Positions 3,940 to 25,502 are shown, counted from the stretch's first letter. The stretch: 64,000 bases of DNA from an uncultured Gammaproteobacteria bacterium (GCA_964414145.1 CAYPVH010000006.1:16357-80356), one strand, 5' to 3'. Notes: a model not told the origin generated them from the letters alone. Numbers and translations are program-made.

Positions 3940-4154
3940 AGCATAATCTCTAAACTCTCCTTCGCTCTCTAGGACATGACTATGGTCTATCCCGCTTTCG
4001 CTTTCGTCCAGCGGACTTTGTCCGCCGTAGCCTGTAAATATGCCCGCCGTATTCGTGAACAAGCCTTATGGGTTTTATTCGAACACGGCTTGTTCTCTCA
4101 TTTACTGGCGGGCACTGTTGTTTCTAAGCTCGATTACTCGCTAAGAAACATCAG
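3940..4154. other. GC-rich structured non-coding segment (candidate ncRNA or chromosomal att arm); unclassified
   Basis: GC content far above surroundings. Nested complementary stems on the minus strand: GCCCGCC..AACAAGCC..GGCTTGTT..GGCGGGC, plus GCGGAC-AAA-GTCCGC, plus a 9-bp stem at 4118-4147. The only ORF here (3976-4200) has no recognisable protein features and runs into the att core. Confidence 0.3.
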
Positions 4155-4192
4155 TGCGGAGCAGTTAGGTCTAGCACCCTTGTGTCCTGATA
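4155..4192 (+). repeat. att-like core plus P' arm, copy 1 (distal island boundary)
   Basis: tgcggag + cagttaggtctagcacccttgtgtcctgata; ~90% identical to 24056-24093. Confidence 0.6.
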
Positions 4193-4329
4193 ACTGCTAA
4201 GTGCATTCCTCTATTATTTTAGCAATTTTATGTACTTATAACCGAGACAAATGGGACAGTATAAAAAAGAAGTTAAATTATAAAGTGTGTATTGACACAC
4301 ACGCACACTTATAATAAAATAGTGGCTAC

Positions 4330-5490
4330 ATGACAAACACAAAAGTACAAGTCTTAAAAACAGAAAGGGAGGATGGATATAGAATCTTTACTCTTTCACT
4401 TGAGGATGAATCCAACAACAAACGTGAATATCAGATTTACGTCTTTGATAATGACTTCCCCATACAGGAGTCTGACACAACAGAAACAATGCTTCAAGAT
4501 TTTGCCAAGAAACAAATGACTGACTGGTTAAGGGATTCGGATGGAAAATTTCCTAAAGACAAATATCGTGTTCTTGTTAACGGTGGAAGAATCACAACTG
4601 ACAATGTGAACAGCTTTCTGTCAGTACAGAAAAAAACTGCAGATCTTACTCGTACCAACGTAACCATTTCCGCACCTCTATTTGAATGGGCCAAGGCTAA
4701 GGCTAGGAAAGAAAATACTAGCTTTAGTGACTTAGTCTCCAGGGGTTTGCTAACACTTAAAGATTCGGATAAAGAAATTAATGCATGGTACAAAGCTCAA
4801 CGAGTTTTTTTCAATGAAAAACTAGGTGATTTAGGTTCCTTTGAGGTTTTTCATTACCTACCCAACAATTATGAGGTTTTTGACACCGATAAGCTAAAGG
4901 ATGTTCTCCAGAAGGTAGAAGTAAGGCGAACTGGTTGGCCAATTGGAGCGTATCTAACGGGGAGCAATCAGCGACCGTATCCACAACAGGATGGTATTAG
5001 GGCTGAGTATAACCCTACAGATTATCTAAAAGTAGATTACTGGTACGCCAAGAATAAGGGTGAGTTTTATTTTGCTCGGAATTTAGAATCTGACTCTGGA
5101 AATGGCAAAGACAAGCCCAGAACTAGTCTTTATTTTGACACCTTGATTTGGAGAATAGCTGAATCCCTTGAACATTGTCTTGCCTATTATAAAGGGCTAG
5201 AAATAGATGAAGGGGAAAGAGTTAAGATAAAACTATCTCTTGATGGACTCACTGGCAGATCGCTCAGCGCTTGGAATCAAATGAGAGCGTTAACACTAAG
5301 GCACTATGTTTGTGAGTCGGATAGGGCAACGTGGGAAATGGAGATCACGCTCGATGAGTTAGAAAAACAGTTAGATGAGTTGATTTATGACGCTACAAGA
5401 AAACTTTTGGTGATGTTTAACTTTTTTGTTCCCAACAAAGAAGTGGTACAAGATATTCTTAAAAGAGAGTACAGAAAGTCGAATCTTTAA
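4330..5490 (+). CDS. Hypothetical protein with ribbon-helix-helix-like segment (island gene)
   Basis: 386 aa; segment VTISAPLFEWAKAKARKENTSFSDLVSRGL resembles a CopG/RHH antitoxin-type motif; large uncharacterised C-terminal domain. Confidence 0.5.
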   Translation: MTNTKVQVLKTEREDGYRIFTLSLEDESNNKREYQIYVFDNDFPIQESDTTETMLQDFAKKQMTDWLRDSDGKFPKDKYRVLVNGGRITTDNVNSFLSVQKKTADLTRTNVTISAPLFEWAKAKARKENTSFSDLVSRGLLTLKDSDKEINAWYKAQRVFFNEKLGDLGSFEVFHYLPNNYEVFDTDKLKDVLQKVEVRRTGWPIGAYLTGSNQRPYPQQDGIRAEYNPTDYLKVDYWYAKNKGEFYFARNLESDSGNGKDKPRTSLYFDTLIWRIAESLEHCLAYYKGLEIDEGERVKIKLSLDGLTGRSLSAWNQMRALTLRHYVCESDRATWEMEITLDELEKQLDELIYDATRKLLVMFNFFVPNKEVVQDILKREYRKSNL

Positions 5491-5491
5491 T

Positions 5492-6322
5492 ATGAAGGCT
5501 AAAAATTATATAACTGCTAAAGCACGTCAAGATATTAGAAAACTAGCAGAATTAATTGGCGAAATCATTCCTGCCACAAGTCTTGGTAATTTTTGTTTCA
5601 AAAAAATCGCTAACCAACGGACATCTACAAAAAAATTCTGGGTTAATGGAAATAATAAGAAAGAACAAATCAGTGTTTTTTTGACCAACTTATACCGTTA
5701 CCACCCAAACCTTATATATAAAATTATTAGAGAGAGTCTTCCAAAAGGAATTGAAAGACGTTATAAAATGGGTAATCCTATTCTCCAAAGTGAAATTGGA
5801 GAACTAAATCAAGCACTTCTAGCACTAAACATAAATCTTTCTAAAGAAATCCATGATCTAAATTTACCAACAGAAAAACCTAAGATTGTTCCACCTCCTC
5901 CTGAATTCCAAAATATAATGAGGAAAATGTCACTTGATGTCAAATTAGAAGAAAATGTAAAACAACTCTACCTAGATGGACATATAAATGAGTCTGTAAG
6001 AAAGTCTCTAGAAATTTACGAAAAAGAAGTACAGGACTTAAGTAGACTAGAATTAATTGGTAAGGATTTAATGATTCGAGCCTTCAATGAAAATAGTCCA
6101 ATTATCTTAGTAGCAGATGTATCTACCAGAAGAGGAAAATCATTTCAAGAAGGTTTTAGATACATCTCGGCAGGGATAATGCTACATTGGCGAAACAAAT
6201 TCAGTCATGGAAATGAGGATCAAATTTCATACATTGATGGTTTTCAATTAATTATGGCAATAAATCAATTAATGTGTGAAATTGAAGTCAACAAAGCTTT
6301 CAAAAATAAAAACTCCTATTAG
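5492..6322 (+). CDS. Abi_C/TIGR02391-like C-terminal domain protein (possible abortive-infection component)
   Basis: ATG at 5492 lies 2 nt after the upstream stop. C-terminal HWRNKFSHG block resembles the conserved RN..HG signature of the Abi C-terminal family. The ORF track extends the frame to 5426, but 5492 is the likely start. Confidence 0.4.
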   Translation: MKAKNYITAKARQDIRKLAELIGEIIPATSLGNFCFKKIANQRTSTKKFWVNGNNKKEQISVFLTNLYRYHPNLIYKIIRESLPKGIERRYKMGNPILQSEIGELNQALLALNINLSKEIHDLNLPTEKPKIVPPPPEFQNIMRKMSLDVKLEENVKQLYLDGHINESVRKSLEIYEKEVQDLSRLELIGKDLMIRAFNENSPIILVADVSTRRGKSFQEGFRYISAGIMLHWRNKFSHGNEDQISYIDGFQLIMAINQLMCEIEVNKAFKNKNSY

Positions 6323-6438
6323 AATGGAATTTCATCATCTGATATCTCACTGCTTTCAGAATCTTCGTTTGTATTATTTCTTCCAGTAATTGATTCTGTG
6401 TTATTATTTGATCCTTCTTCTAACTTAAGCTCATTAAA

Positions 6439-7455
6439 TCAATTCTCAATATTTAATAAAGGCTGGAACCATTTAACCAACTTATCTAATTCCTTTATAT
6501 TACTAGGTATTGAGTTATCTGCTATAAATTTTGCCTTATAATACTGATTCCAATAAGCTTCGCCTGATCGTCGTGGATGCTTACCCAAAAAAGAATCATA
6601 AAAAGATTCGTGAATTTCATAATGATGAGTGTGAATAAAATCAGACCATGTTTTACGGAGTTTGTTTTGATCGGAGCCTGGGCGGCAAATTATTTCTGTT
6701 TGTTCCATATTTCTTTCTACAATATCTCCCCATCCTTCTTTTAATAGCTTTATTGCTTCAATATCTGTCTTTGGCGCACTATAGCCAAAAATGCTAACCA
6801 TAAAACATCTTTTCAAAAAACACCGTATTGCATCCCATTCTCGTTGAATAAAATCCCCATCATTATAGTTCTTATTTTCTATTGGATATAACAGTTGTGA
6901 AGGCAAAAAGTAATTTCCACATTTTTTACATTTCCTCCCTATTACACCTCTCTTTTTATCTTTGGAACAATAGCCAACTTGTACATTTCCATGTAAAAAA
7001 AATAATTTAGGGAATTTGGTCACTCCATGTGAAGCTAATCTTATTCTAGATTGCATCAAAAACGGATCCCAATTAAAAGTCGCAATAACATCTTTTTCTC
7101 TCAATGAAAGAGTAATAACATCATATAAATTTGCTTCTCTAGGTAATTTAAGATTATTAAAATATTCTGAAATTTTTTCGTTTATTATCTCTACTTCTTT
7201 AGTATTTCCATTTTTAAATAATTTAGAATAAGCATCTTCAAAATTAACCTCAGACAAGGCTTGTAATTCTGTTGGAAATAAACTTTGAAGTGATAATTGT
7301 TTTGCTAAATCTTTCATCAAAGGAACCGGTTGCCCGTTCTCGTCACCATTATGCAATGCGGCATTATTAACTCCAGCACCAAGAATTAATACATGCGGTT
7401 TACGCATAAATATTTTTCCAATTTCTTCTTTTGCTGATACATTTAGATTATCCAT
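6439..7455 (-). CDS. SIR2-like (SIR2_2/DHS-like NAD-binding) domain protein, defense-type
   Basis: three motifs in order: VLILGAGVN (GAG), IATFNWDPFL (TxNYD-like), FFLHGNV (LHG). Start overlaps the upstream gene end (operon). Confidence 0.6.
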   Translation of the reverse strand: MDNLNVSAKEEIGKIFMRKPHVLILGAGVNNAALHNGDENGQPVPLMKDLAKQLSLQSLFPTELQALSEVNFEDAYSKLFKNGNTKEVEIINEKISEYFNNLKLPREANLYDVITLSLREKDVIATFNWDPFLMQSRIRLASHGVTKFPKLFFLHGNVQVGYCSKDKKRGVIGRKCKKCGNYFLPSQLLYPIENKNYNDGDFIQREWDAIRCFLKRCFMVSIFGYSAPKTDIEAIKLLKEGWGDIVERNMEQTEIICRPGSDQNKLRKTWSDFIHTHHYEIHESFYDSFLGKHPRRSGEAYWNQYYKAKFIADNSIPSNIKELDKLVKWFQPLLNIEN

Positions 7456-8530
7456 TCTTTTTTATTAAATGCATTAAATCATCTTCTTGTTCATATGCTT
7501 TCAATCTACCTGTCAATATACCTAATCTGTAATTAACTCCATCACTCATTAGTCTCCAATTCGTATCTTTAAGAGCTGAAATAACCGTTTTCTTCAGTAT
7601 GTTTTGACTATCTCTTTCATGTCTGTCTTCCTTAGTATTGTTTACTGAAAAATCTACTATTACATACTTACCAATATTTGGTTTGCCAAATTGTAAGTCT
7701 TGATAATAATTCTTTGCAAGAGCATTAATTAATGCTCTTTTAACTTGGATAAGTGTAAGTTTCTTAAGTTTTTTTGCTTTAATGTACCTGGGGTCTTTTC
7801 TTTTTTTTTCTAGTCTTTTTTGTTCATTTCTAAAACTCTTTAATCTTTCTATTGTATATACAAATTCATCACCTTCTTTTTTACTTAAGCAAAATTTATC
7901 TCGGTACTTATTAAGTAATTCTTTGTCTTGTTTTTCTTTATCGGCTTGTTCTTTTTCCCATTTCTTGTGATCATCAATCTCTTCTATAATGTAACTACAT
8001 TGAGAACATTCATCCTTCCAAATAGTTTTAGTTTTTAATGTTCTAATAGATTGCTTTAGTACTGAATTACAGCTTGGGCACTTTGGTTTCTCATATATTA
8101 TCCTTTTTCCTAAGTGATTAATAATTATTCCTTCTTTACAATGAGGACATTTTAGAGCAAAGTGAACTTCAAGATTCTCACCAACACTTCCGTGAAGATT
8201 TCTAGCTACATATTCCATCTTTGTTTCACATTTTTCACAGAATCTAGGTGGTGGAGTCGAGCAGTCGTATAGTTCTTGTTTTACCCTATCTCTCTCCATC
8301 CATTCATTAATTATCTTTTCTTTATTACAATATCTCTCTCCTGTATATGCCCAAATTGCAAGATTAAGTACTCTCTCAAGATCCTTTTTATTTTTGTCTA
8401 AAAAATGTTTAAGTGACTTGTATTTTGGATACTTAGAATTCTTAACTTCGTCTATTAAATGAAGAACATACTGGATAGTTCCAAGATCATAGAGTTCCTC
8501 GTAATAACTTCTATCTTTTAAGTATTGCAT
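7448..8530 (-). CDS. Multi-CxxC zinc-ribbon protein with lysine-rich coiled-coil, partner of the SIR2-like gene
   Basis: CEKCETK..CPHCKEG..CPSCNS..CSQCS motifs; translationally coupled on both sides (8530 and 7448-7455 overlaps). Confidence 0.5.
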   Translation of the reverse strand: MQYLKDRSYYEELYDLGTIQYVLHLIDEVKNSKYPKYKSLKHFLDKNKKDLERVLNLAIWAYTGERYCNKEKIINEWMERDRVKQELYDCSTPPPRFCEKCETKMEYVARNLHGSVGENLEVHFALKCPHCKEGIIINHLGKRIIYEKPKCPSCNSVLKQSIRTLKTKTIWKDECSQCSYIIEEIDDHKKWEKEQADKEKQDKELLNKYRDKFCLSKKEGDEFVYTIERLKSFRNEQKRLEKKRKDPRYIKAKKLKKLTLIQVKRALINALAKNYYQDLQFGKPNIGKYVIVDFSVNNTKEDRHERDSQNILKKTVISALKDTNWRLMSDGVNYRLGILTGRLKAYEQEDDLMHLIKKNG

Positions 8531-9123
8531 TAATTTCTTAATTCATAACGATATACTGTACTGTTATCCTTGTCTTCGCTATAAACCTTGATTGAATATT
8601 TAGCTCTGTTTTTGGGATAGAAATGAAAATTCATTTCGTTAAAGAAAATTATTCGGTAGCGATAATTCCCCTTCTCTAGAACCTTATCTAGCTTGATTGA
8701 TAACTCGGAGTTGGAGAAACTACCCTGAGCTTTTGCAAAGTAACGTTTGTCGAGAGTTAGATAGTTATTTTTATATCGCGCCTCACTAATTTTGTAGAAG
8801 TGCAGAATGTAGACATATCTATCTTTGTATTTGCCGAATGTATAAGTACAATCTCTGAATTTGTTTTCTGCCCTATACTTCTCCCCATACCTAATATTTG
8901 AGAGCATTGTAACCCCAAATCCCACAATTTTGGTTTCTAACGAACGCTTTAGGTAATCCTCTCTAGTAACTAATTTTGCCTCAGGGTTCCAAGCTTTGGC
9001 AGAGCTACTAAGAATACTTGAACAGGAAGCTTTGAGTTCGTTGAATTTTCTCGTATCAAAGAACAGAGCTTTTCGAATACGATTCTCAGGCGATAACTTC
9101 TTCCACTGAGTAATGCTTTTCAT
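8530..9123 (-). CDS. Hypothetical protein, first gene of the SIR2-like operon
   Basis: 197 aa ORF whose stop overlaps the start of the next gene (8530). Confidence 0.45.
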   Translation of the reverse strand: MKSITQWKKLSPENRIRKALFFDTRKFNELKASCSSILSSSAKAWNPEAKLVTREDYLKRSLETKIVGFGVTMLSNIRYGEKYRAENKFRDCTYTFGKYKDRYVYILHFYKISEARYKNNYLTLDKRYFAKAQGSFSNSELSIKLDKVLEKGNYRYRIIFFNEMNFHFYPKNRAKYSIKVYSEDKDNSTVYRYELRN

Positions 9124-9970
9124 AATTTTATTATATACTCATACTATGAGATTAAAGGTAATATTGGTACTTGTTCTAGTAATAGCTTCAATTGTTGTCA
9201 TTACTCACAAGGAAAACTGTACAAATGCTTTTTCTGTTCAGGATTATACGGAAAGCAAGAAGGGCTCAATAAAGATTTGCGATAAAGCAGTTTATTACAA
9301 CGATTCTAAAATTGTTGATGATAAGGAAAACAGCGAGCTTTTTCACTACAAACTATCCAACAAGATAGAGGACACTAAACAATATGTAAGAATCTTTGAG
9401 GACAATAAGCAAACATATATAGGTATAATCTCAGTAATTGATTATGCATCTTGGTTCAAGTCTACTATTAGCGTATATAAAAAAGAACCAGTCGGATTTA
9501 AGGAAATTTTTAAACTGCCCTTTAAAGATGTACCCGGGAGATTCGCTAAGATTAGTTTTGTTAACTATAACTTGTTTGATTATCACAATATTGAAGTTTC
9601 TGGAGATGTTGGATACTTGGGTTGTTACGGATGTCTTATTAATTGGGTAGACTATTACCGTTGGGATAGCAAAAAACAAAACTTTGTTCTTGTTAACAAT
9701 CAACATAAGCGCGAATTTGAGGATTTACTAAAAAGATTTGAAGAACAAAATCAAAGTGCTTGTTTGGAAACTTCAGGAACTCCGGGAGTAATCTCCGAGT
9801 TATACCCTGCTCGTAAAGATAGTAAGGGTTTTTGTGATGATAGAGCCATTGTTCCTTATATAACTACTAAGCAGGCAAAAACGCTACTACAGGCAATAAG
9901 GGCTGCAAAGTTAATCATTAAGAATGATAATATTTCCAGCAAAGAAGTAAAAAATATTGTAATAGAATAG
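9113..9970 (+). CDS. Hypothetical membrane-anchored/secreted protein
   Basis: N-terminal hydrophobic helix VILVLVLVIASIVVI, Cys-rich body. Confidence 0.45.
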   Translation: MLFIILLYTHTMRLKVILVLVLVIASIVVITHKENCTNAFSVQDYTESKKGSIKICDKAVYYNDSKIVDDKENSELFHYKLSNKIEDTKQYVRIFEDNKQTYIGIISVIDYASWFKSTISVYKKEPVGFKEIFKLPFKDVPGRFAKISFVNYNLFDYHNIEVSGDVGYLGCYGCLINWVDYYRWDSKKQNFVLVNNQHKREFEDLLKRFEEQNQSACLETSGTPGVISELYPARKDSKGFCDDRAIVPYITTKQAKTLLQAIRAAKLIIKNDNISSKEVKNIVIE

Positions 9971-9981
9971 GCTATTTACTT

Positions 9982-10557
9982 TTATCTACTAGGAAAGTAC
10001 TCATTCCAAGGCAAAAGCAAGTCTTCCACATTATGTAACGATTCATCTCGATAGTATTTTCTACTCATTGTTTTAAGAACAAGTTCTGTACATTTTTCAG
10101 ACGCAATCTTAACTCGCTCTGTGAAAAGTTTATTTTCATCAACTGGATCGCTCTTTTTTTCGTTCTGAATATGGATTCTATTTCTTATTTTTCGAAGACT
10201 ATCTAATACCGAATAAAATTTAGTATCCTTTGCATCAAAGAAATCGTTACTTTTGGCGTGTTGGATATATTTATCAAGCTTGTCGATTTCTTTATTCTTT
10301 ATATACTCTATTACTATTTTAGGTACGTTTATTACTCCCTCAAAAGTATGATATTTGATTCTATGATAAAAATCATGTAGAACAGCCTCGTTTATAGACA
10401 TTAACCATATTACAATTGGTTTAATCAAGAGCATTTTAGTTTTTGCATTATCGGAATTATACAAATCATAAAAATGATTTAGAATTTCCAAATTATAAAC
10501 AACATTGTCACCCGTTTTAAAGCTCCCAAAAAAATTAGACTTAATTATGAAAGTCAT
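9982..10557 (-). CDS. Hypothetical protein, last gene of the helicase/MTase operon
   Basis: 191 aa ORF overlapping the MTase stop by 4 nt. Confidence 0.45.
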   Translation of the reverse strand: MTFIIKSNFFGSFKTGDNVVYNLEILNHFYDLYNSDNAKTKMLLIKPIVIWLMSINEAVLHDFYHRIKYHTFEGVINVPKIVIEYIKNKEIDKLDKYIQHAKSNDFFDAKDTKFYSVLDSLRKIRNRIHIQNEKKSDPVDENKLFTERVKIASEKCTELVLKTMSRKYYRDESLHNVEDLLLPWNEYFPSR

Positions 10558-14060: not shown

Positions 14061-14064
14061 AAAA

Positions 14065-17250: not shown

Positions 17251-17520
17251 ATTTACATCCTTTTCTATATAGGTTATTCTTAACTAAATTCAATTGAACT
17301 CACATTCAATTATAAAACAAATGCTTTTACTTTTATATTATATGTGTGTGATTGCTCTGGGCCCAAAGCTTTTCACATAAATCTTTCTTTGAATTCAAAC
17401 TTAATAATCACATAAATTTTATTAACCTATAGGACTATTATAACTTAGTTTTAACAAAAAATACTCATTGGGAGAGAAAAAAAATAATTAAAAAAACACT
17501 ATAATATTAATAATGTGATG

Positions 17521-17540
17521 AATTTGGTGTTCACCAAATT
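17521..17540. promoter_or_regulatory. Perfect 9-bp-arm palindrome (candidate operator) in a divergent promoter region
   Basis: AATTTGGTGttCACCAAATT, between the divergently transcribed helicase operon and the ParB/MTase gene; tandem aatgaaaaatgaaaaatgaatgaggtgtgaggtgtag follows. Confidence 0.4.
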
Positions 17541-17693
17541 TAAGCGGTTATTGAAAACCACTGAATCACATCTCTTCAAATAATGAAAAATGAAAAATGA
17601 ATGAGGTGTGAGGTGTAGTTTTTAGTAGCCGCTTTTTTTGTTGCTGCTAAAACTTAGAAAGTAAGTGAGTTATTAACAGTTACTAGTTTAAAT

Positions 17694-19022: not shown

Positions 19023-19534
19023 AAAGCATAGAGAAAAGAATCAGTAGAAACAAAAGAGAGCTTCTAAAACATTTAGAGACTATGCCAATTGTTCAGATTG
19101 CCTGCAAGAAGGAAGGTGTTGGCCGATCAACTTACTATCGTTGGCGAAAAGAAGATCCAGTGTTTTGTAGAGAAGCAGACAAAGCACTTTCGCAGGGTAA
19201 AGCACTGATGAATGATTTAGCAGAAAGTAAGTTATTAACTGGAGTAAAAGAGCAGAATATGACTGCAATAATATTTTGGTTGAAGAATAATCACCCTAAT
19301 TATATGAGTTCTTTTAACAAACTAAATAAGGATCAAATGGAAACTCTACTAGACATATTTGTCAATGCATCAACAATTAATAATTACAACAGTTTAAAAA
19401 AGATATTTAACCTAGAGATACCAGTTAAAATAATACGTCCAGTATTAAGCCTGTTAAAAATCATTGTCAGTAACAAAAGAGAGAATAATAACTACAGAAA
19501 ATTAAAATTATTGTCTGAACTCAAAGGAAAATGA
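19019..19534 (+). CDS. Phage-like HTH protein (terminase-small-subunit-like or regulator)
   Basis: GVGRSTYYRWRKEDPVF..AIIFWLKNNHP pattern common in phage small terminase/HTH proteins; start overlaps the upstream stop. Confidence 0.35.
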   Translation: MKSIEKRISRNKRELLKHLETMPIVQIACKKEGVGRSTYYRWRKEDPVFCREADKALSQGKALMNDLAESKLLTGVKEQNMTAIIFWLKNNHPNYMSSFNKLNKDQMETLLDIFVNASTINNYNSLKKIFNLEIPVKIIRPVLSLLKIIVSNKRENNNYRKLKLLSELKGK

Positions 19535-20157
19535 CAAACAAGTCTATATTCAGCAAATTCAAGTTAACAACTAAGGAAAAAGTAATTCTTACATATCTTA
19601 AAATTGAAGAAAAAAATAAGATTGTTAATCCGTATGAATTTAATATGTTAGCAGGAATTAAATCAAAAGAAGAAAAAATATCGTTTAAAAAGTGGGTTGT
19701 TGTACTAAGATATTTATTAGAGAATGATTCGACTGCAATAACATACTTCTACAAAATCTTATATCTTCACAATGTTTTACAAATAAAAAGTCAAAACAAA
19801 TCGATTACAGAGGGTATGAAAGATGCATATAAAGGATTTTTTCTTTCAGTTGCTATTTCATATTCACTCTCGCTTCTTTTTAAACGCTTAATTAATTTGA
19901 AAACATCAAAATTAATAATAGCAGTTAGGCCACTTGATGAAGGTAAGCTAGATATATCAAAAAACAAAACAAGGTTCTATAAAGAATATATTAATTATCA
20001 AAATAATATTTCAAATAGTGTTATAGATGTACTTGGAGATATTTCATATAAGTTAGAAAAGTATGAGTATATATCTGAGGCTTTAATATGCAGGTATGCA
20101 GATGAGACAATAGACTATTTAAACAGTTATGTTTTACCCTTTACAAAAAAACCTTAA
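19531..20157 (+). CDS. Hypothetical protein
   Basis: 208 aa ORF translationally coupled to the upstream gene. Confidence 0.4.
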   Translation: MTNKSIFSKFKLTTKEKVILTYLKIEEKNKIVNPYEFNMLAGIKSKEEKISFKKWVVVLRYLLENDSTAITYFYKILYLHNVLQIKSQNKSITEGMKDAYKGFFLSVAISYSLSLLFKRLINLKTSKLIIAVRPLDEGKLDISKNKTRFYKEYINYQNNISNSVIDVLGDISYKLEKYEYISEALICRYADETIDYLNSYVLPFTKKP

Positions 20158-20366
20158 ACCAAGTCTCGTACCTTTACCTTAAGTTTTTTTGCAATTCTAT
20201 TTAATAAAGGAAGTGAGGGGTTGTTTCTTCCTTGTTCAATATACCCCATATACACCCGGCTAATACCAACCATGTCTGCAAGCTCTTCTTGTGATAATTT
20301 ACGCTCAAGTCTGTATTTCTGAATTTTGTTACCGACTTTTTTAGCAACACGGCCAAGTTTACCCAT
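20154..20366 (-). CDS. XRE-family helix-turn-helix transcriptional regulator
   Basis: LSQEELADMVGISRVYMGYIEQGRNNPSLPLLNRIAKKL, a canonical HTH_3 domain; 70 aa. Confidence 0.8.
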   Translation of the reverse strand: MGKLGRVAKKVGNKIQKYRLERKLSQEELADMVGISRVYMGYIEQGRNNPSLPLLNRIAKKLKVKVRDLV

Positions 20367-20507
20367 ATTGGCATTATCGTTAGAGAAGGTGAATATATCT
20401 ACTAAGCAACACTTAGCAGTGTGTTTAGTATTGGCCTTGCAATTAACCTATTCATAATTTATTATTGTCATCAGAAATACTCTAATTTAGACTTAGCAAG
20501 AAAGGAG

Positions 20508-20980
20508 ATGAAAAGAAACTGAAAAAACTACTTAAATGGGGAGGTATAGCTTTAGTTGTGATTATTGTTATAGGTGCTGTTGCAGGTGGTGGTTCAAGTT
20601 CTACTCCCAACTCAAATACTCAGGAGGTGAAGAAAGAAAGTTCAAATACTGAGACAGAGAAAGAAGTAGCTAAAGAACCTGAAGAAATATCTGTACAAGA
20701 ACTTGCAGATGACTTTGACGGCAATCAAGTTGCAGCAGAGTCAAAATGGGGAGGAAAATTTGTAAAGTTTAGTGCTGAAATATCTAATATTACTGATACA
20801 GGTATATCCTTTACCGATGTAGCCACAAAAGATTTTTCAATGACTCAAATTAGTTGCAAGATAAAGGATAAGAATCAGCTTATGCCTCTAAAGAACGGCG
20901 AGACAGTTACAGTAAAAGGTGTTATTGGTGATCAAATGATCGGTGTAATAGAACTAAAGGAATGCGAGGTTGTTAATTAA
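20508..20980 (+). CDS. Small membrane-anchored/secreted protein; start region ambiguous
   Basis: ORF track begins at GTG 20558, but a strong RBS AAAGGAG plus ATG at 20508 sits one frame off, just upstream of an A6 run. If corrected, this gives MKRN..KKLLKWGGIALVVIIVIGAVAGGGSSS (TM anchor followed by a Ser/Thr-rich linker). Confidence 0.45.
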
Positions 20981-21000
20981 TGTAAAGACAGTCTTGTGAA

Positions 21001-21033
21001 AAACCGCTCTATAGAAGAGCGGTTTTTCTTCTG
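21001..21033. terminator. Bidirectional rho-independent terminator between convergent genes
   Basis: aaAACCGCTCTatagaaGAGCGGTTtttcttct. Confidence 0.6.
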
Positions 21034-21037
21034 TTTA

Positions 21038-21454
21038 CTACTCACTTATATTTTCATACCGTCCATCTTCATAAGGTGGGTAACAAATCTCATAAGCGGT
21101 TAAACTTGAATCATCATCTGCAAACCATTGCATTGTCTCGTCTATATTAACAATAACACTTATTGGTCTACCATCTGCTATATAAACTGTTTTTCCATTT
21201 ATCTCCAGTCTACCTTTTCCAGAAATATATCCTTCTATTGTTTTATTTCCCTTTAATACTCTCTGGAGTGGAGTATGTTTGCCAGGCGAGATACGAATAA
21301 TACCTAAGTCTCTGCTATTATCTCCTACAAATCTATAAACATCACATTCAACACCATCTATTACTTGAATTGTCTCTATAAATTCTACTGGCAATTCTTG
21401 GCCTTCAAATAGAAATACTTCTATTGGTTTAAATGGAGCTTTTTCTGCTGTCAT
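21038..21454 (-). CDS. Hypothetical small beta-rich protein
   Basis: 138 aa ORF with good start context; no recognisable motif. Confidence 0.4.
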   Translation of the reverse strand: MTAEKAPFKPIEVFLFEGQELPVEFIETIQVIDGVECDVYRFVGDNSRDLGIIRISPGKHTPLQRVLKGNKTIEGYISGKGRLEINGKTVYIADGRPISVIVNIDETMQWFADDDSSLTAYEICYPPYEDGRYENISE

Positions 21455-21556
21455 AAACTTAATTTATCAAATAGTAAGCAATAATACTAACCCAATATAA
21501 TTGAGCAACCAAAATGCATGATATAATATATTGTAGAAGCAAATTTTAAGCATTTA

Positions 21557-21587
21557 TAGCTCCGCTTTTAAGCGGGGCTTTTTTTAA
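21557..21587 (+). terminator. Orphan hairpin plus T-run (terminator-like), not after any called + strand gene
   Basis: aGCTCCGCTTttaAGCGGGGCttttttt; followed by RBS AAAGGAG plus a 52-aa ORF (21615-21773). Confidence 0.4.
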
Positions 21588-22056
21588 TAATTAAATATAA
21601 AGGAGATGAGAAAAATGAAGAAAAATAAAATAGACAGTGAAATTAAAACAAGTTCTTATTTTAAAGAGACAGAAGCATTATTTAATAAGATAGTTATAGC
21701 AGTAAATTCATTAGAGGAAAGAGTAAATATACTAGAATGTAGAGATGAACAAATCCAAGAGCAGGATAAATAAGAAAAAAGTAAATATTCGTAGCAATCT
21801 AAATTCTAACAGACTATATGAGATTGCTACGAATTATTTTGAATATATAAAGTTCTTCATCACTTGACTTCCCAAACCCTTCCGGTATTCTTGGGTTAAA
21901 TGAATGATTACAGTAATCTAAATAAGCATAAGAAGCAATTAATAAAGCTAATAAAAAGATGTGAAAACTACTTCTATAAGTACCTACTTACAGAAGACAA
22001 GGAATACATAGATAAGTTCTTTGCTATATCTGGAAAACTAAAGAGGATAATCCAAT

Positions 22057-23367
22057 ATGATAAACGGAAACAATAACATAAATTACTGTCTTTATGCCAG
22101 AAAGTCATCTGAATCAGATGAAAGACAAGCGATGAGTATAGATGGACAGCTAAAAGAAATGTACTATGTTGCCAAAAAAGAGAAACTAAATATATCAGAT
22201 GTTATTACAGAAAGTCACTCTGCGAAAGAGTCAGGTGAAAGACCAGGCTTTAATCAGTTAATAACAAAAATCACAAAAGGAGATTTTAATGCAGTCCTTA
22301 CTTGGGCACCTGACCGATTAAGCAGAAATGCGGGTGACTTAGGAAGAATAGTGGACCTAATGGATCAACAAAAGTTAGTTCAGATAAGAACTCACTCCCA
22401 ATCATTTAGTAATAATCCTAATGAAAAGTTCCTGCTTATGATTCTCTGTTCTCAAGCCAAACTAGAGAATGATAATAGGGGAATAAATGTTAAACGTGGA
22501 CTCAGAAGTAAATGCGAAGCAGGTATCCGTCCGGGTGTAGCTCCTGTTGGATATATAAATGTACATAAAGAAAATAGAATAGCAACTATTGATATTGATA
22601 AAGAAAGAGCAATGATTATTAAGGAAATGTTTAAGAAAGTTGCAAATCAAGGATATTCCGGACGAATGGTAAAGAAATGGTTAGATAATCTTGGTTTTAG
22701 AACAAAGGGTGGATACAGAATTGCTTTAAGCAAAGTATATACAATACTAAAGAATCCCTTTTACTATGGAGAATTCAAATATGGCGGTAAATGGTATCAA
22801 GGAATTCATGAGCCACTAATTACAAGAAGCCTGTTTGACAAAGTACAGATAGAACTTGAAATAACCCCAAGACAATGGAATAAACAGACATTTCCCTTCA
22901 AAAAACTATGTAAATGTGGCAGCTGTGGTGGTAGTGTAACAGCAGAGATTAAGTACAGAAGAACAAAGAATGGAAAGATTAATACTCATATATATTATCA
23001 CTGCAATAGAATTAAAAAGTATGATTGTAAAGAACCGTATATTAGAGAGGAAGACCTTATTAAACAACTAATATCTTATTTACCTAAACTTAAACTAGAT
23101 ATTAATTACTTATACAGAGAATTTGAAGTAGAAATAAAAAGACTGCAACATTTAAAAGCAACAGTTATTGATAAATATAATCCCTACAATATTCAACTCA
23201 CTCCACATAATACGAGTAGTAACAAAATGAATCTATCTAAAACTGATGTAGTGAAAGACTATGTTTTACACGTTTTAACATATGGTACACCTGAGGAGAG
23301 ATTGAAAATATTGAAAGGAGTGAAAACTAGGTTTTTGCTCTCAAAGAGAAGTCTTAAGACTATCTAA
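22057..23367 (+). CDS. Large serine recombinase (resolvase/invertase-type catalytic domain plus recombinase/Zn-ribbon extension)
   Basis: N-terminal CLYARKSSESDERQAMSIDGQ matches the YAR(V/K)S..Q catalytic-serine motif; 436 aa; Cys cluster CKCGSCGG..YHCNR in the C-terminal region. Confidence 0.75.
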   Translation: MINGNNNINYCLYARKSSESDERQAMSIDGQLKEMYYVAKKEKLNISDVITESHSAKESGERPGFNQLITKITKGDFNAVLTWAPDRLSRNAGDLGRIVDLMDQQKLVQIRTHSQSFSNNPNEKFLLMILCSQAKLENDNRGINVKRGLRSKCEAGIRPGVAPVGYINVHKENRIATIDIDKERAMIIKEMFKKVANQGYSGRMVKKWLDNLGFRTKGGYRIALSKVYTILKNPFYYGEFKYGGKWYQGIHEPLITRSLFDKVQIELEITPRQWNKQTFPFKKLCKCGSCGGSVTAEIKYRRTKNGKINTHIYYHCNRIKKYDCKEPYIREEDLIKQLISYLPKLKLDINYLYREFEVEIKRLQHLKATVIDKYNPYNIQLTPHNTSSNKMNLSKTDVVKDYVLHVLTYGTPEERLKILKGVKTRFLLSKRSLKTI

Positions 23368-23375
23368 GAAAGGTG

Positions 23376-23396
23376 GGGCGGCCTGTGGCCGCCCCT
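23376..23396. repeat. Perfect GC palindrome GGGGCGGCCtgtGGCCGCCCC immediately after the recombinase stop
   Basis: 9-bp arms, no T-run; at the junction with the GC-rich VOC gene. Confidence 0.4.
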
Positions 23397-23405
23397 GTTA
23401 TTGGA

Positions 23406-23831
23406 TCAACCGACACTGATAAACTCAAGCTTAAAAGTAAGCAGCGCCGGAATCTCCACGAACCACTTGGTTCGCTCCTTGTTGGCAGGCTCAATACGAG
23501 CCGTCATACCTGCGAGACCTGCCCACTTTTCCACTTCGTGCGCCGTCAGGTCGGCATCAAAAACCTTTATTCCGAGATGCGCTCCTGGAAGAATTGCCGG
23601 GTCATCAGGGTGACCCAGCTCTTCTGTAAGCTGTACTCGAACTTTTTGGTTCTTGGGCCTTACGAAACGCGCACATCCCCAATCGCCTTCGACCCTTGAT
23701 TCTGTGTCTTCAATCCAACCTAGATGGTTGGTAAAAAAGAACACAGCACCTCGCATCATTCCGGTTCTGACCAGGAAGGCAGCATGGTCAAGACCGGCGC
23801 CTCCAATGAGGCTCCTCAGACTCTGTGTCAT
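23406..23831 (-). CDS. VOC/glyoxalase-bleomycin-resistance-like protein, GC-rich (foreign composition)
   Basis: 141 aa. Local GC clearly above 50% against a ~33% background, which is why several spurious opposite-strand ORFs are predicted here. Gly/His-rich beta-alpha-beta style sequence (HLGIKV.., HAAFLV) consistent with the VOC fold; assignment tentative. Confidence 0.45.
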   Translation of the reverse strand: MTQSLRSLIGGAGLDHAAFLVRTGMMRGAVFFFTNHLGWIEDTESRVEGDWGCARFVRPKNQKVRVQLTEELGHPDDPAILPGAHLGIKVFDADLTAHEVEKWAGLAGMTARIEPANKERTKWFVEIPALLTFKLEFISVG

Positions 23832-23903
23832 CTGACACCTCCTCGTGATTTGGGTTCTTAACCCTATTTTGATTATACCACAAATATTATAGGCTTATAT
23901 TCT

Positions 23904-24055
23904 TAGAACCAAGCACTATTTCTAAAAGAGTTTTTTATGGAGTTTTTCATTCTCTAGGCCGTAAATAGGCTCTTGAAGGAATTATGCATTTTTCTAGCAA
24001 ACCATAAAAGGCCATAGTAAGCAGGTAGTTGGGTCTTGCGAAACTGTTGATAAAA
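23904..24055 (+). repeat. ~152-bp P arm direct repeat, copy 1
   Basis: tagaacca..tttttatggagtttttcattctcta..gttgataaaa is ~92% identical to 25149-25300; ends at core tgcggag. Confidence 0.7.
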
Positions 24056-24093
24056 TGCGGAGCAGTTGGGTCTAGCACCCTCATGTCCTGATA
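24056..24093 (+). repeat. att-like core plus P' arm, copy 2
   Basis: tgcggag + cagttgggtctagcaccctcatgtcctgata. Confidence 0.6.
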
Positions 24094-24145
24094 GTCTAAA
24101 ACAAATTGAACTCACAAAATTTAATAATCTATAATATTAGCAACA

Positions 24146-25099
24146 ATGCAGGAAGAAATAACAACAACACCCGATAACTTTGATGGAGAATTAGATTCAA
24201 AGAATAATGGTGGTGAGACTCAAAAAAGTGACAAGTTAGCTCCTTCAATTGAAAGGGCAAATAATATTCAAAGATATATTGTTACCAGAAATGGCCAGAT
24301 GGTAGAGGTAACATTTGATCAAATGACACAAGAAGAAAAATCGGTTTTTGATGATTCACCAGAACTTGTTCAATTTGATCAAGACCCTTTAATGAACCCT
24401 AGTGGATTTTTTGATTATTTAAAAGTTAAAAATCCTAATTATAAATACGATGATTTAACTTCGCCTGAGATGATTAGGAAAGCAGTGGAATGGGCTCAAG
24501 AAAAGGGATTTGATCCATCTGAACTATCACCTGCGCAAATTCTGCTTTCGCAAGATTATACGCCAGGAACAAAGACTAAAGCTGAAATCGCACAAGAAGT
24601 TATAGAAGAAAGAGTAGAAAGATTACTATCGAAAAAAAAAGAATTGGCTCATATTCTTGTTCCTACCGGAAATAGATATTTTCATGCAACGCCAGACCTA
24701 GATACTGTTAGAGCTATTTTTAAAGAAGGGCTTTACTGTGATAGTAGATTAGGCCTAGATGGATCTGCAGTTCCTCTTGCTTCTTTGCCAGCTGATTCTG
24801 GTGATGCTTCTAGAGATATGATATTAAATCTCAATGTTAGAAAACTTGCAGAACCACATCGAGGACATAGATATGAAGTTATTATAGATTTACCATCTCT
24901 TACTTCACAACAAATGGCTGATTATGAGTCTAGAGCTGCAAATGGCGAAAATGTATCAACTAGCAGTTATTTTGTTGAAACTAGAGATCATGAAGTTGGG
25001 GGAGAAGGTGCTGTAATAACTTATGATGCAACTCTACCTCCAAAATACTTAAAAGGCTATATTGACCTAAATACAGGAGAATATTATCTTAAAGAATAA
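24146..25099 (+). CDS. Hypothetical acidic protein (cargo of satellite element)
   Basis: 317 aa ORF with good ATG; no recognisable motif. Confidence 0.45.
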   Translation: MQEEITTTPDNFDGELDSKNNGGETQKSDKLAPSIERANNIQRYIVTRNGQMVEVTFDQMTQEEKSVFDDSPELVQFDQDPLMNPSGFFDYLKVKNPNYKYDDLTSPEMIRKAVEWAQEKGFDPSELSPAQILLSQDYTPGTKTKAEIAQEVIEERVERLLSKKKELAHILVPTGNRYFHATPDLDTVRAIFKEGLYCDSRLGLDGSAVPLASLPADSGDASRDMILNLNVRKLAEPHRGHRYEVIIDLPSLTSQQMADYESRAANGENVSTSSYFVETRDHEVGGEGAVITYDATLPPKYLKGYIDLNTGEYYLKE

Positions 25100-25148
25100 G
25101 TTATGACTATTAAGATCGTATAATTTAATTAAAATAACTTTCATACAT

Positions 25149-25300
25149 TAGAACCAGACGCTTTTTCTAAACAAGCTTTTTATGGAGTTTTTCATTCTCT
25201 AAGCTGTAGATAGGCTCTTGAAGGAATTATGCAATTTTCTAGCAAACCATATAAGGCCATAATAAGCAGGTAGTTGGGTCTTGTGAAACCGTTGATAAAA
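25149..25300 (+). repeat. ~152-bp P arm direct repeat, copy 2 (abuts tRNA-Ser 3' end)
   Basis: see 23904-24055. Confidence 0.7.
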
Positions 25301-25303
25301 TGC

Positions 25304-25389
25304 GGAGAGGGTGGGATTCGAACCCACGTTCGGCGTTAACCGAAACACGCTTTCGAGGCGTGCGCAATCGTCCGCTCTGCCACCTCTCC
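25304..25389 (-). tRNA. tRNA-Ser (anticodon CGA)
   Basis: minus-strand read GGAGAGG-TG-GCAGAGCGGAC..-CACGC-CTCGAAA-GCGTG-long variable arm TTTCGGTTAACGCCGAAC-GTGGG-TTCGAAT-CCCAC-CCTCTCC-G. 7-bp acceptor stem, canonical T-loop, anticodon loop CU-CGA-AA; CCA not encoded. Confidence 0.85.
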
Positions 25390-25502
25390 AATTTAGTTGT
25401 CAGTTCTCAGTTGTCAGTTATAAGATATCGGATATCAGATATCAGTTCTCAGATACCAGATATTACATAAATATTATACCTTAAGAATATCGCCTTAATG
25501 AT

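Follow-up and report, generated by a model that had tools for sequence, protein, structure and literature searches.

Two related elements probably in tandem at the 3' end of a tRNA-Ser(CGA) gene, with a large serine recombinase of a tRNA-targeting Patescibacteria family

In the window, which is the whole 64-kb stretch of DNA that was analysed, an intact tRNA-Ser(CGA) gene lies at one end of a region containing three copies of a 7-bp core, TGCGGAG, and two kinds of longer repeats, called here the P and P' arms. The question is what produced this arrangement. It is likely that two related elements, X and Y, lie head-to-tail at the 3' end of the tRNA gene and were placed there through site-specific recombination by a tRNA-targeting large serine recombinase (LSR) of Patescibacteria. 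The junctions, arms and flanks are as follows.

3940..4154, no strand assigned: left arm of chromosomal DNA (B side of attL), non-coding, with high G+C and strong predicted structure
4155..4161, plus strand: core copy C (TGCGGAG), predicted crossover region of attL
4162..4192, plus strand: P' arm copy C, T-arm and acceptor mimic (CAGTTAGGTCTAGCACCC...), 28/31 identical to 24063-24093
23903..24055, plus strand: P arm copy A, right end of element X; blocks conserved in L027 and L110; GGGTCTTG at 24031-24038, 17 nt before the core
24056..24062, plus strand: core copy A; junction A (P-core-P'), spanned by L024, L106 and L107
24063..24093, plus strand: P' arm copy A, left end of element Y, from the repeat comparison with copy C
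25148..25300, plus strand: P arm copy B, right end of element Y; GGGTCTTG at 25276-25283
25301..25307, plus strand: core copy B, predicted crossover region of attR; overlaps the tRNA 3' end
25302..25389, minus strand: tRNA-Ser(CGA), intact, integration target, B' side (ARAGORN; Rfam tRNA at 25303-25389, 55.8 bits)

The preliminary description placed a common core at 4155, 24056 and 25301, and all three positions were confirmed (4155-4161 at junction C, 24056-24062 at junction A, 25301-25307 at junction B). A fourth TGCGGAG is present at 16361, and the 7-mer by itself is not significant. Read on the tRNA strand, the core is CTCCGCA, in which the final 4 nt of the acceptor stem are followed by the discriminator G and 2 trailer nt. 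The earlier reading of the last copy as the acceptor-stem 3' end plus discriminator was thus nearly exact, missing the two trailer nucleotides. The P arm copies (23903-24055 and 25148-25300) are 90.1% identical over 152 nt without gaps and 92.4% identical over 144 nt by blastn (E=2.8e-53), with 11 differing positions. The core plus P' arm (4155-4192 against 24056-24093) matches at 35/38 positions (92.1%, E=4e-9), and the 31-nt P' arm without the core at 28/31 (90.3%). The preliminary description had given ~92% for the P arm and ~90% for the P' arm. The next-best match of junction A within the window has an E-value of 0.23. A degenerate pattern covering all junction types shows exactly 3 matches in the window and 0 in 100 shuffles.

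The core with P' copy C is identical to the tRNA 3' end at 17/25 positions in direct reading. Judged from sequence, the P' arm copies the acceptor and T-arm of the tRNA in degenerate form. GGGT in P and ACCC in P' and B' lie 22-25 nt to each side of the core's left edge, and other dyad symmetry is weak. The shared 7-bp core is compatible with the short att sites of LSRs, in which attP and attB have a central crossover dinucleotide in common and show imperfect dyad symmetry. Junction A is attP-like, as it reads P-core-P'. The left arm, described earlier as GC-rich, has 47% G+C against about 34-37% around it, and its minus strand is predicted to fold at -73.4 kcal/mol (z=-5.1). In this arm (3940-4154), metagenome contigs have no called ORF, and there is neither an Rfam match nor a P-arm motif. 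The P' arm coincides exactly with the boundary in composition and gene content; the G+C content of element X is 0.324, compared with 0.344-0.366 in the flanks. Together, the intact tRNA at one end, the core repeat at 4155 and the LSR gene inside (22057-23367) show the layout of a tRNA-integrated island.

A mis-join or a collapsed repeat in the assembly could mimic a tandem arrangement, and short-read contigs do break at the repeat edges (L003 stops at 4193 and L109 at 24063). This explanation has practically no chance of being correct. Junctions C, A and B all recur in independent contigs from ten samples (seven JGI and three SRA) at 99.95-100% identity, which opposes the assembly artefact that the preliminary description had named as a possible refutation. 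Junction C is found in L001, L003 and L104, of which L001 and L104 span it; junction A is found in and spanned by L024, L106 and L107; and L024, from a different sample, spans both A and B on one contig. The two P copies are also distinguishable because of their 11 differences.

Element X was described earlier as an island of ~20 kb with defence systems, a serine recombinase and phage-like genes, and its gene content is as described.

4162..24055, no strand assigned: element X, LSR-bearing defence island, 19.9 kb, bounded by junctions C and A
5426..6322, plus strand: Hypoth_Ymh/HEPN-like protein, cargo (PF09509, 64 bits; weak PADLOC HEPN matches)
10554..14060, minus strand: type IIG restriction-modification enzyme, cargo (PADLOC REase_MTase_IIG, 1.6e-192; Pfam Eco57I, MmeI_Mtase, TaqI_C)
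14065..17250, minus strand: PLD(HKD)-SNF2 helicase, defence-like cargo (PLDc_2, ResIII, Helicase_C; PADLOC "HKD+Snf2", 3e-50)
17694..19022, plus strand: fusion of a ParB N-terminal domain and a DNA methyltransferase, family backbone (PF02195, PF01555; phrog_498, 1.8e-81)
19019..19534, plus strand: small-terminase-like (TerS) HTH protein, family backbone (phrog_309, 2.4e-9)
20558..20980, plus strand: OB-fold (tRNA_anti-like) protein (PF12869; phrog_8545, 7e-11), resembling superinfection-exclusion proteins
22057..23367, plus strand: LSR, 436 aa, intact (PF00239, PF07508, PF13408; phrog_95 integrase, 1.6e-64)
23406..23831, minus strand: 141-aa cargo ORF in a segment of 53% G+C, in a variable slot between LSR and P arm

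Homologues of the ParB-methylase are present at the equivalent position in L030, L034, L044, L046-L048 and contig154, and restriction or defence cargo to the left of the ParB-methylase is also seen in relatives. The TerS-like protein shows 38-54% identity to the product of the gene upstream of TerL in L030, L034, L044, L046 and L048. Relatives carry TerS together with TerL (phrog_38, 2e-79), and no structural genes were detected in them between the ParB-methylase and the LSR. In the window, neither TerL nor a TerL remnant is present, so element X may no longer be transferable. Among the ORFs scanned, the only PHROGs match of the structural and packaging kind in the window is the TerS-like one, and a tyrosine recombinase is not found. 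No conjugation genes are present here. The 141-aa ORF at 23406-23831 has no family or PDB match. Without TerL or virion genes among the ORFs scanned, element X does not qualify as a functional prophage.

The recombinase appears intact. It has the resolvase catalytic domain with its serine, followed C-terminally by the recombinase and zinc-ribbon domains that define LSRs (PF00239, 76.8 bits against a cut-off of 23.3; PF07508, 59.4 against 21.1; PF13408, 36.8 against 25.3). The catalytic motif YARKSSESD is present. Every residue invariant across 26 homologues is kept, including Y13, R15, S17 and S18, and the zinc-ribbon cysteines are invariant in the same set. More than 120 homologue clusters show 63-80% identity to this LSR and come from Patescibacteria wherever the source gives a name. 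Membership of the LSR in a large clade of Patescibacteria LSRs is supported by these similarities. The host of the elements is an uncultured Patescibacteria (CPR) bacterium. Among 50,697 deposited phage records, no LSR exceeds 27% identity to the LSR of the window.

In this clade, a tRNA in the opposite orientation, in most cases tRNA-Ser, lies 0.1-5.6 kb downstream of the LSR gene. At 57 homologue loci there are 0 tRNAs in 285 kb upstream of the LSR and 25 in 185 kb downstream. The first tRNA downstream lies on the opposite strand in 18/18 loci having one; by type, the first downstream tRNAs are Ser (11), Gln (4), Glu (2), Asp (1) and Trp (1). The P-arm motif GGGTCTWS-N17-18-T(G)GC lies directly against the tRNA 3' end at loci whose LSRs are 45-80% identical. 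Since this motif between LSR and tRNA ends at the tRNA 3' terminus, junctions A and B represent genuine right ends of elements. In L027 and L110, the closest relatives, conservation extends over the full ~165 nt of the P arm.

P and P' could instead be conserved regulatory repeats, tRNA-linked or intergenic, with the island boundaries elsewhere. The P arm is far longer, at ~165 nt, than an LSR needs for attP, and it contains conserved blocks, including the inverted pair TTAGAA...TTCTAG. An empty site, in which 3940-4154 abuts the tRNA, was not found either. Nevertheless, regulatory repeats are an extremely unlikely explanation. P arms were seen only tRNA-proximal to LSR genes of the family, beside four tRNA-Ser isoacceptors and one tRNA-Gln in different organisms; they thus move together with the LSR instead of being tied to a single tRNA. 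P' sits exactly at the compositional and gene-content boundary. The preliminary description had named common intergenic repeats as a refutation; within the 64-kb window there is no P-arm or P'-like site beyond the three junctions.

Site-specific placement by the LSR family is also consistent with the arrays of its relatives. P-core-P' junctions with a T-arm-like P' are present in L066, L046 and L048. On one viral contig (L066/L057), three co-oriented LSR-like genes precede a tRNA-Ser, and a P-core-P' junction follows the first of them. In L066, the ParB-methylase of a downstream element lies 1.1 kb past the junction, in a region that contains two more LSR-like genes and ends at the tRNA-Ser. 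This contig indicates that tandem arrays recur in the LSR family. The attL of any other family member was not recovered among the loci searched, so the conservation of P' rests on the three internal junctions. Also against the site-specific reading, neither an empty site nor a circular junction or excision product turned up in the contigs searched. The source organism has no close relative in any of the collections searched, and the nearest relatives of the flanks are at most 52% identical on the GH130 side and at most 52% on the bPH_2 side, without synteny. The degenerate attB/attP/attL/attR pattern matched only two unrelated tRNA-Ser genes in metagenomes and had no match in viral contigs.

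Element Y consists of a P' arm, one ORF and a P arm.

24063..25300, no strand assigned: element Y, 1,238 bp; a single ORF framed by P' and P arms, non-autonomous, no recombinase gene
24146..25099, plus strand: 317-aa ORF, with a promoter-like site at 24106-24135 (promoter scan)

The product of this ORF has no Pfam, PDB or PHROG match and no recombinase domain. It has 36 remote relatives, one of which is the C-terminal domain of a 4375-aa protein. No homologue was found in other elements of the family. The only close homologue (L103) has flanks without significant similarity to P or P'. Element Y may be a decayed family member, or a cassette dependent on an LSR supplied in trans. The second, tiny element proposed earlier at 24.06-25.30 kb thus stands as an arm-bounded unit of 1,238 bp, but it lacks a recombinase and may be a decayed remnant.

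The lack of a recombinase or backbone gene in Y, together with the lack of any sign of its mobility, would also fit a rearranged piece of X, if homologous or illegitimate recombination inside one element had duplicated P and made the P-P' junction. Such an internal event is very unlikely. The exact join of P to P' across the 7-bp core fits circularisation or tandem integration, not unequal crossing-over, and like junctions exist in L066, L046 and L048. The arm copies are ~8-10% apart, while the population is nearly clonal outside the arms (1 SNP in 2 kb).

If the elements were placed by the LSR, the circular form of an element would carry attP as P-core-P'. P would be the conserved ~165-nt arm with the inner part GGGTCTTG-N17, and the core TG(G)CGG... 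would match the tRNA terminus. attB would consist of the last tRNA nucleotides and the trailer. Exchange within TGCGGAG would produce attL (chromosome-core-P', junction C) and attR (P-core-tRNA, junction B), with the crossover point probably at TG/GC of the tRNA terminus. Because attP and attB do not differ in the exchanged nucleotides, the tRNA would remain intact. Element X carries the LSR, the ParB-methylase and TerS-like backbone, and the restriction and defence cargo. Three att sites are found in direct orientation, the middle one being a hybrid of the right arm of X and the left arm of Y. Junction A (P of X, core, P' of Y) would then be the signature of tandem accretion. The canonical reaction left to the array would be attL (C) with attR (B), aided by a directionality factor, which would release X and Y as one circle with two attP sites.

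Canonical LSRs, of the phiC31 and Bxb1 type, recombine attP with attB only, or attL with attR in the presence of a directionality factor. Given this selectivity, accretion requires a less selective enzyme or a cointegrate. Since a first integration destroys attB, either a second one used attL or attR, outside the canonical range of LSRs, or a single event brought in a cointegrate with two attP sites. Two successive integrations into the same attB had been proposed earlier. The tRNA-associated LSR family and the P-arm motif support site-specific tandem insertion, but "the same attB" is imprecise.

The one-step version, in which an X+Y cointegrate circle entered an intact attB through one of its two attP sites, is rather unlikely. 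It leads to the identical final structure with only canonical attP x attB chemistry, and LSR directionality disfavours attP x attL and attP x attR. The cointegrate could be an earlier X+Y excision product, as canonical excision of the present array through attL (C) and attR (B) would itself release such a circle, or a heterodimer formed by homologous recombination of related elements. Contigs with multiple LSRs do exist in the family. However, the cointegrate must itself have arisen, which only moves accretion back in time. The ~8-10% difference between the arm copies also weighs against it, and shows that X and Y did not arise recently from a single element.

The locus resembles the tRNA and tmRNA islands and prophages of the Islander type in its site at a tRNA 3' end, the tRNA kept intact by element-borne sequence, the tRNA-end repeat at the far boundary, the integrase gene inside and the defence cargo. 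Those islands use tyrosine integrases, whereas an LSR is found here; a passage of the Islander study attributes integration into tDNA to tyrosine integrases (PMC4383910). Exact identity at the present locus is only 7 bp, and the remainder is an element-borne degenerate T-arm mimic rather than a displaced host fragment.

Serine-integrase phages (phiC31, Bxb1, A118, TP901-1 and pneumococcal phages) share the three-domain integrase, the short common core and the int gene beside attP. They mostly integrate inside protein-coding genes (PMC5357655), and tRNA is not mentioned in an article on them (PMC10083194). Unlike in these phages, no virion genes were found in the window. Phage satellites and PICI-like islands are a possible parallel, being likewise small integrative elements with a TerS-like gene and no full virion module. 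The present elements differ in that neither a helper phage nor a gene for capsid remodelling nor a primase-replication module could be identified for them.

Accretion by ICESt1/ICESt3 of Streptococcus thermophilus and by streptococcal IMEs and CIMEs gives the same pattern of three direct att repeats with an attP-like hybrid in the middle. In both cases, one member has no recombinase of its own and might be moved in cis by its neighbour. A passage of PMC5357655, citing Pavlovic 2004 and Bellanger 2011, presents accretion via attL or attR as an established route to tandem arrays, and decayed elements are common in accretion (PMC5357655). The ICE/IME arrays depend on tyrosine integrases that tolerate attL and attR as targets, while the present array has an LSR. 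Their sites are the 3' ends of protein genes (fda, rpsI, rpmG) or tRNA-Lys, in contrast to tRNA-Ser, and they are conjugative or mobilisable elements, whereas conjugation genes are lacking here.

SCCmec and composite SCC islands are driven by the LSRs CcrAB and CcrC and lie at the 3' end of a conserved housekeeping gene that is kept active. Repeated att sequences divide their tandem arrays into full and recombinase-less (pseudo-SCC) elements. The present locus shares with them the LSR, the gene 3' end left intact as a target, the recombinase-less partner and the repeated att. The best NCBIfam match of the window LSR is CcrB, but its 101.7 bits are far below the equivalog cut-off of 900, so it is not a Ccr recombinase; CcrA (53.5 against 700 bits) and CcrC (48.9 against 900) match less well, and the target is tRNA-Ser, not rlmH. 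SCC elements use rlmH (orfX) in Staphylococcus, in contrast to a tRNA in Patescibacteria. Overall, the arrangement is of an ordinary mobile-DNA kind, unusual mainly in having a serine and not a tyrosine recombinase at a tRNA. The clade of tRNA-targeting LSRs in CPR bacteria is the more notable by-product of the comparison.

The heptamer TGCGGAG occurs at 4155, 24056 and 25301 of the window. The last copy overlaps the 3' end of tRNA-Ser(CGA) (25302-25389, minus strand), the sole tRNA placed by ARAGORN and Rfam. On the tRNA strand it reads CTCCGCA, which corresponds to the last four bases of the acceptor stem, the discriminator G and two bases of the trailer. The preliminary description had equated it with the acceptor stem and discriminator; the two trailer bases are to be added. 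The right-end arm, P, is duplicated to the left of the cores at 24056 and 25301 (23903-24055 and 25148-25300). Its copies are 90% identical over 152 nt without gaps, and blastn aligns 144 nt at 92.4% identity (E=2.8e-53). The left-end arm of 31 nt, P', is duplicated to the right of the cores at 4155 and 24056, with 28 of 31 positions identical. Core and P' together are identical at 35 of 38 positions (E=4e-9), and elsewhere in the window junction A matches at best with E=0.23. A degenerate pattern allowing every combination of arms matched the three junctions and nothing else in the window, and matched in none of 100 shuffles. There are no further P- or P'-like sites elsewhere in the 64-kb window.

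Sites, elements and genes of the locus
4155: junction C, chromosome-core-P', predicted attL
4162-24055: element X, defence island with a large serine recombinase (LSR)
22057-23367, plus strand, in element X: intact LSR of 436 aa; Resolvase, Recombinase and Zn_ribbon_recom domains all above Pfam cut-offs
In element X: HEPN-like Hypoth_Ymh protein
In element X: type IIG restriction-modification enzyme (PADLOC, 1.6e-192)
In element X: HKD-SNF2 helicase
In element X: ParB-methyltransferase fusion
In element X: small-terminase-like protein
In element X: OB-fold protein, superinfection-exclusion-like
24056: junction A, P-core-P', attP-like
24063-25300: element Y, mini-element
25301: junction B, P-core-tRNA, predicted attR

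The three junctions, with their shared 7-bp core and duplicated arms, are confirmed by the pattern scan, blastn and independent contigs. Junction C is reproduced in contigs L001, L003 and L104, and junction A in L024, L106 and L107; L024 covers both A and B. Identity to the window is 99.95-100% throughout. These contigs are independent assemblies from ten samples (seven from JGI and three from SRA; source metagenomes include JGI 3300076254, 3300076266, 3300076582, 3300076587, 3300076591 and 3300076594, and SRR12447078, SRR12447092 and SRR12447101), and since they reproduce all junctions, the structure is not an assembly artefact. Exact look-up of five window proteins returned same-strain contigs alone, with identical junctions. 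The sole difference between L001 and the window is a 39-nt versus 10-nt replacement in a GNAT acetyltransferase gene (window 2416-2454).

Read on the tRNA strand, core and P' (GGGTGCTAGACCTAACTGCTCCGCA) share 17 of 25 positions with the authentic 3' end of the tRNA (GGGTTCGAATCCCACCCTCTCCGCA). P' is a degenerate mimic of the tRNA T-arm and acceptor. A crossover in the T-loop, leaving a displaced host tRNA fragment at junction C, is ruled out because identity to the tRNA ends after TGCGGAG, and the exchange is therefore placed inside the core.

The G+C content of element X is 0.324, compared with 0.344-0.366 outside. Its genes agree, by Pfam and PADLOC, with the island of defence systems, serine recombinase and phage-like genes that had been proposed. 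No tyrosine recombinase was found among the ORFs scanned, and a tyrosine-integrase island was rejected on this ground. An IS element or transposon was also rejected, as neither a transposase nor terminal inverted repeats were found. TerL, which follows TerS in relatives (phrog_38, 2e-79 in L034), is missing from element X. Element X may therefore be a defective derivative.

A run of unannotated ORFs (338, 360, 197, 285 and 191 aa, the second with a hint of a zinc ribbon) occupies 6439-10557 on the minus strand and 9113-9970 on the plus strand. It shares the orientation of the type IIG restriction enzyme and HKD-SNF2 helicase, sits directly upstream of them and may form a defence module not described before. 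Between the LSR and the P arm there is a variable cargo slot. In the window it holds a 490-bp stretch (23373-23860) at 53% G+C within the 32% G+C island, with a 141-aa minus-strand ORF lacking matches to any family or PDB entry. This stretch is set apart from the LSR gene by a perfect 9-bp G+C hairpin (23375-23395). In L110, whose LSR is the closest relative (80% identical), the slot contains a TIR-domain protein (3385-4047), so the slot seems to gather defence-type genes.

LSR homologues form over 120 clusters at 63-80% identity, labelled Patescibacteria wherever the source gives a name. Genomic contexts were examined for clusters P0003, P0004, P0005 and P0014, and for P0150 in the case of the ORF of element Y; 58 viral-contig loci were retrieved with an alignment of 26 LSR homologues. 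P0014 is carried by a groundwater population, and contigs with LSR homologues include BOKR01000001.1 and IMG/VR 3300033402_000781, 3300025154_002045 and 3300032737_000190. Among 57 non-redundant LSR loci, 285 kb of upstream sequence contain no tRNA, against 25 in 185 kb of downstream sequence. The first downstream tRNA is on the opposite strand in all 18 loci that have one, as in the window. Target tRNAs in those loci are Ser (11), Gln (4), Glu (2), Asp (1) and Trp (1). The motif GGGTCT(T/A)(G/C)-N17-18-T(G)GC abuts the tRNA 3' end and is conserved across LSRs from 45% to 80% identical. In L027 and L110, whose LSRs are 78-80% identical and each beside a tRNA-Ser, the entire P arm of ~165 nt aligns with both window copies. 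The alignment begins at a conserved TTAGAACCA block, which is the start of the duplication in the window. This conservation of motif and arm indicates that P is a discrete right-end module moving with the LSR rather than with a particular tRNA.

The conservation over ~165 nt extends well beyond the need of an LSR attP. All four aligned arms have an invariant inverted pair, TTAGAA...TTCTAG, ~85 nt apart (window 23910-23919/24004-24012 and 25155-25164/25249-25257). The arm may serve as an accessory-protein site, a promoter or a terminator. Consensus folding of the four arms gives weak structures of -4.9 and -13.3 kcal/mol in which compensatory pairs are few. At 70-100 nt ahead of the real tRNA, some P arms in the family include either an additional T-arm-like stretch or a hairpin in which two T-arm-like halves are inverted, GTTCGAATCCC...GGGATTCGAAC (L057 15805-15852, L066 7214-7266, L053 ~5038 and L060 ~13404). 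They may be relics of earlier integration or accessory sites. A serine tRNA with A34 is unusual among bacteria; ARAGORN places tRNA-Ser genes with anticodon ACT, adjoining ordinary tRNA-Ser(GCT) genes, in several Patescibacteria contigs (L030 12826-12913, L034 21138-21225 and L057 15917-16004).

The backbone of the family is ordered ParB-methylase, optional second methylase, TerS, TerL (phrog_38, 2e-79) and LSR (L034 5766-7322, L046 2612-4012, L048 8484-9839 and L071 218-1615). In L048 the LSR directly follows TerL. Between ParB-methylase and LSR, these loci showed no capsid, portal or tail genes. This gene content suggests satellite-like elements, not complete prophages.

The type of junction A, in which the P motif, T(G)GCGG and a T-arm-like sequence are joined without a tRNA, is also present in L046, L048 and L066. 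L066, the most informative of these, lies in IMG/VR contig 3300000970_000154. Its first LSR gene (3352-4596) is followed by P-core-P' at ~7293-7340 and, 1.1 kb past it, by ParB-methylase, the backbone gene of the downstream element. Beyond it come another LSR of the family (19844-21085) and, third, a more distant LSR-like gene, and the array ends in a P arm abutting tRNA-Ser. In its gene and site order, this contig has the architecture of the window, with at least one full-size downstream element replacing the mini-element. Three more viral contigs carry two family LSRs each in the same orientation. In L057, a locus of the tandem contig, the region past P-core-P' (4547-9715) has a reverse transcriptase (phrog_1423, 9.6e-126) beside a helicase and a methyltransferase, and the third, more distant LSR-like gene (14401-15756) lies directly upstream of the P arm and tRNA.

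Neither an empty site nor a circular junction was found with degenerate-pattern, GH130 and bPH_2 searches or in same-strain contigs. The degenerate attB/attP/attL/attR pattern had no match in viral contigs. In metagenome contigs, from which the contig of the window is absent, it matched just two unrelated tRNA-Ser genes (L004 and L005). A genome-contig search with the flanking GH130 returned homologues 45-52% identical from assorted CPR and DPANN MAGs, with no tRNA-Ser synteny; relatives of the bPH_2 flank reach at most 52% identity. No attL of other family members was recovered. Repeats of the tRNA end are absent from the 10 kb preceding the LSR in 18 loci and from the complete viral contig of 19.8 kb that was rebuilt from L044 and L045. 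TGCGGAG at 9673 of L025 was rejected as a junction, as it sits in a conserved terminator hairpin that precedes the LSR.

In the proposed mechanism, attP on the circular element would be P-core-P' and attB the tRNA terminus with its trailer. LSR dimers would bring the sites together and exchange strands at a dinucleotide within TGCGGAG, giving junction C as attL and junction B as attR and leaving the tRNA unaltered. The invariant spacing from GGGTCTWS to T(G)GC suggests an axis at or near TG/GC of the tRNA terminus. GGGT in P and ACCC in P' and B', the tRNA side of attB, lie 22-25 nt on either side of the left edge of the core. Junction A would link X's right arm with Y's left arm over one core, the hallmark of a tandem array, and either order of arrival would yield the same product.

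Classical LSRs recombine attP with attB only, which leaves three possible routes to the array. The LSR clade possibly accepts attL or attR as a target, which are tolerated by Ccr recombinases and many tyrosine integrases. Alternatively, attL may serve as a pseudo-attB, its P' mimicking the tRNA. The third possibility is that a two-attP cointegrate came in at one step. Of canonical excisions, only attL(C) x attR(B) is now possible, and it would free X and Y jointly. The predicted empty attB is CGCTAAGAAACATCAG-TGCGGAG-AGGGTGGGATTCGAACCC, and the predicted circles are GAAACTGTTGATAAAA-TGCGGAG-CAGTTAGGTCTAGCACCCTTG for X, GAAACCGTTGATAAAA-TGCGGAG-CAGTTGGGTCTAGCACCCTCA for Y and GAAACCGTTGATAAAA-TGCGGAG-CAGTTAGGTCTAGCACCCTTG for X and Y together. 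The tandem att-site interpretation has strong indirect support, subject to these mechanistic caveats. As to two successive integrations at tRNA-Ser, the tandem att pattern stands, and the claim is qualified by the attP x attB rule.

Element Y contains a single 317-aa ORF (24146-25099) with its own promoter-like site, and nothing more. The ORF has no match in Pfam, PHROG, PADLOC, NCBIfam or PDB, and its AlphaFold model has a pLDDT of 45. It belongs to a small uncharacterised family of 36 representatives with invariant H180, T182, G195, L196, H238, P250 and G304. In one relative, the matching domain sits at the extreme C-terminus of a 4375-aa protein, a placement reminiscent of polymorphic-toxin domains. 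Around its one close homologue (L103) there are no significant P/P' arms, the flanks scoring below shuffled controls.

The island is flanked by bPH_2 and histidine phosphatase genes on the left and two GH130 phosphorylase genes on the right, and these flanks look chromosomal. The nearest GH130 relatives, from Moraniibacteriota and other CPR MAGs, are just ~50% identical, and the host is thus an uncultured Patescibacteria bacterium without close sequenced relatives. The G+C-rich left arm (3940-4154) folds on the minus strand at -73.4 kcal/mol (z=-5.1 versus shuffles) into a structure with a long hairpin whose loop contains GTTCGAAT. Rfam has no match for the left arm or the P arm. The left arm, which an empty site would place directly downstream of tRNA-Ser, may represent a trailer structure or a small RNA that has escaped annotation. 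The tRNA-Ser gene is immediately preceded (25395-25463) by ~ten tandem heptamers with consensus AGTTATC and a 14-nt super-period.

A wider reading, which we consider rather doubtful, is an undescribed, virion-less integrative family across Patescibacteria that combines tRNA-3'-end LSRs, a T-arm-mimic P' and ParB-methylase/TerS/TerL, with the window as one instance. LSR sub-clades would target Ser, Gln, Glu, Asp and Trp tRNAs. As P' would mimic the tRNA acceptor and T-arm, each integration would leave a distal pseudo-attB (chromosome-core-T-arm mimic). If true, this would explain tandem arrays and decayed remnants at tRNAs despite normal LSR directionality. Restriction and defence cargo without virion genes suggests, in such a family, satellite-like transfer in CPR bacteria.

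Mobile elements of CPR bacteria are poorly charted, and the exact ends of one putatively mobile defence island are defined here. The locus also suggests how a recombinase-less passenger gene could ride with the island. There is no conceptual surprise, as tandem accretion, tRNA targeting and LSR islands are each well known. The part deserving follow-up is the CPR clade of tRNA-directed LSRs with a T-arm-mimicking attP. Its short, predictable att sites on the near-universal T-arm/acceptor end would interest the mobile-element biology of reduced genomes, and the clade might also supply integrases whose natural landing sites are conserved.

Textbooks assign integration into tRNA genes to tyrosine integrases, while the known targets of serine integrases mostly lie inside protein-coding genes. 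In the literature searched, PMC4383910 attributes tDNA integration to tyrosine integrases, serine integrases are described with protein genes as targets (PMC5357655), and a large LSR survey (PMC10083194) does not mention tRNA. TIGER/Islander-type resources may already list serine-integrase islands at tRNA genes. The arrangement in the window works likewise to that of tRNA-integrated genomic islands and to the tandem accretion of ICEs and IMEs with CIMEs (PMC5357655). No deposited phage integrase is more than 27% identical to the LSR. With CcrB at 101.7 bits versus a cut-off of 900, the system is not of the Ccr type; among LSR systems, the arrangement most resembles the composite SCCmec islands.
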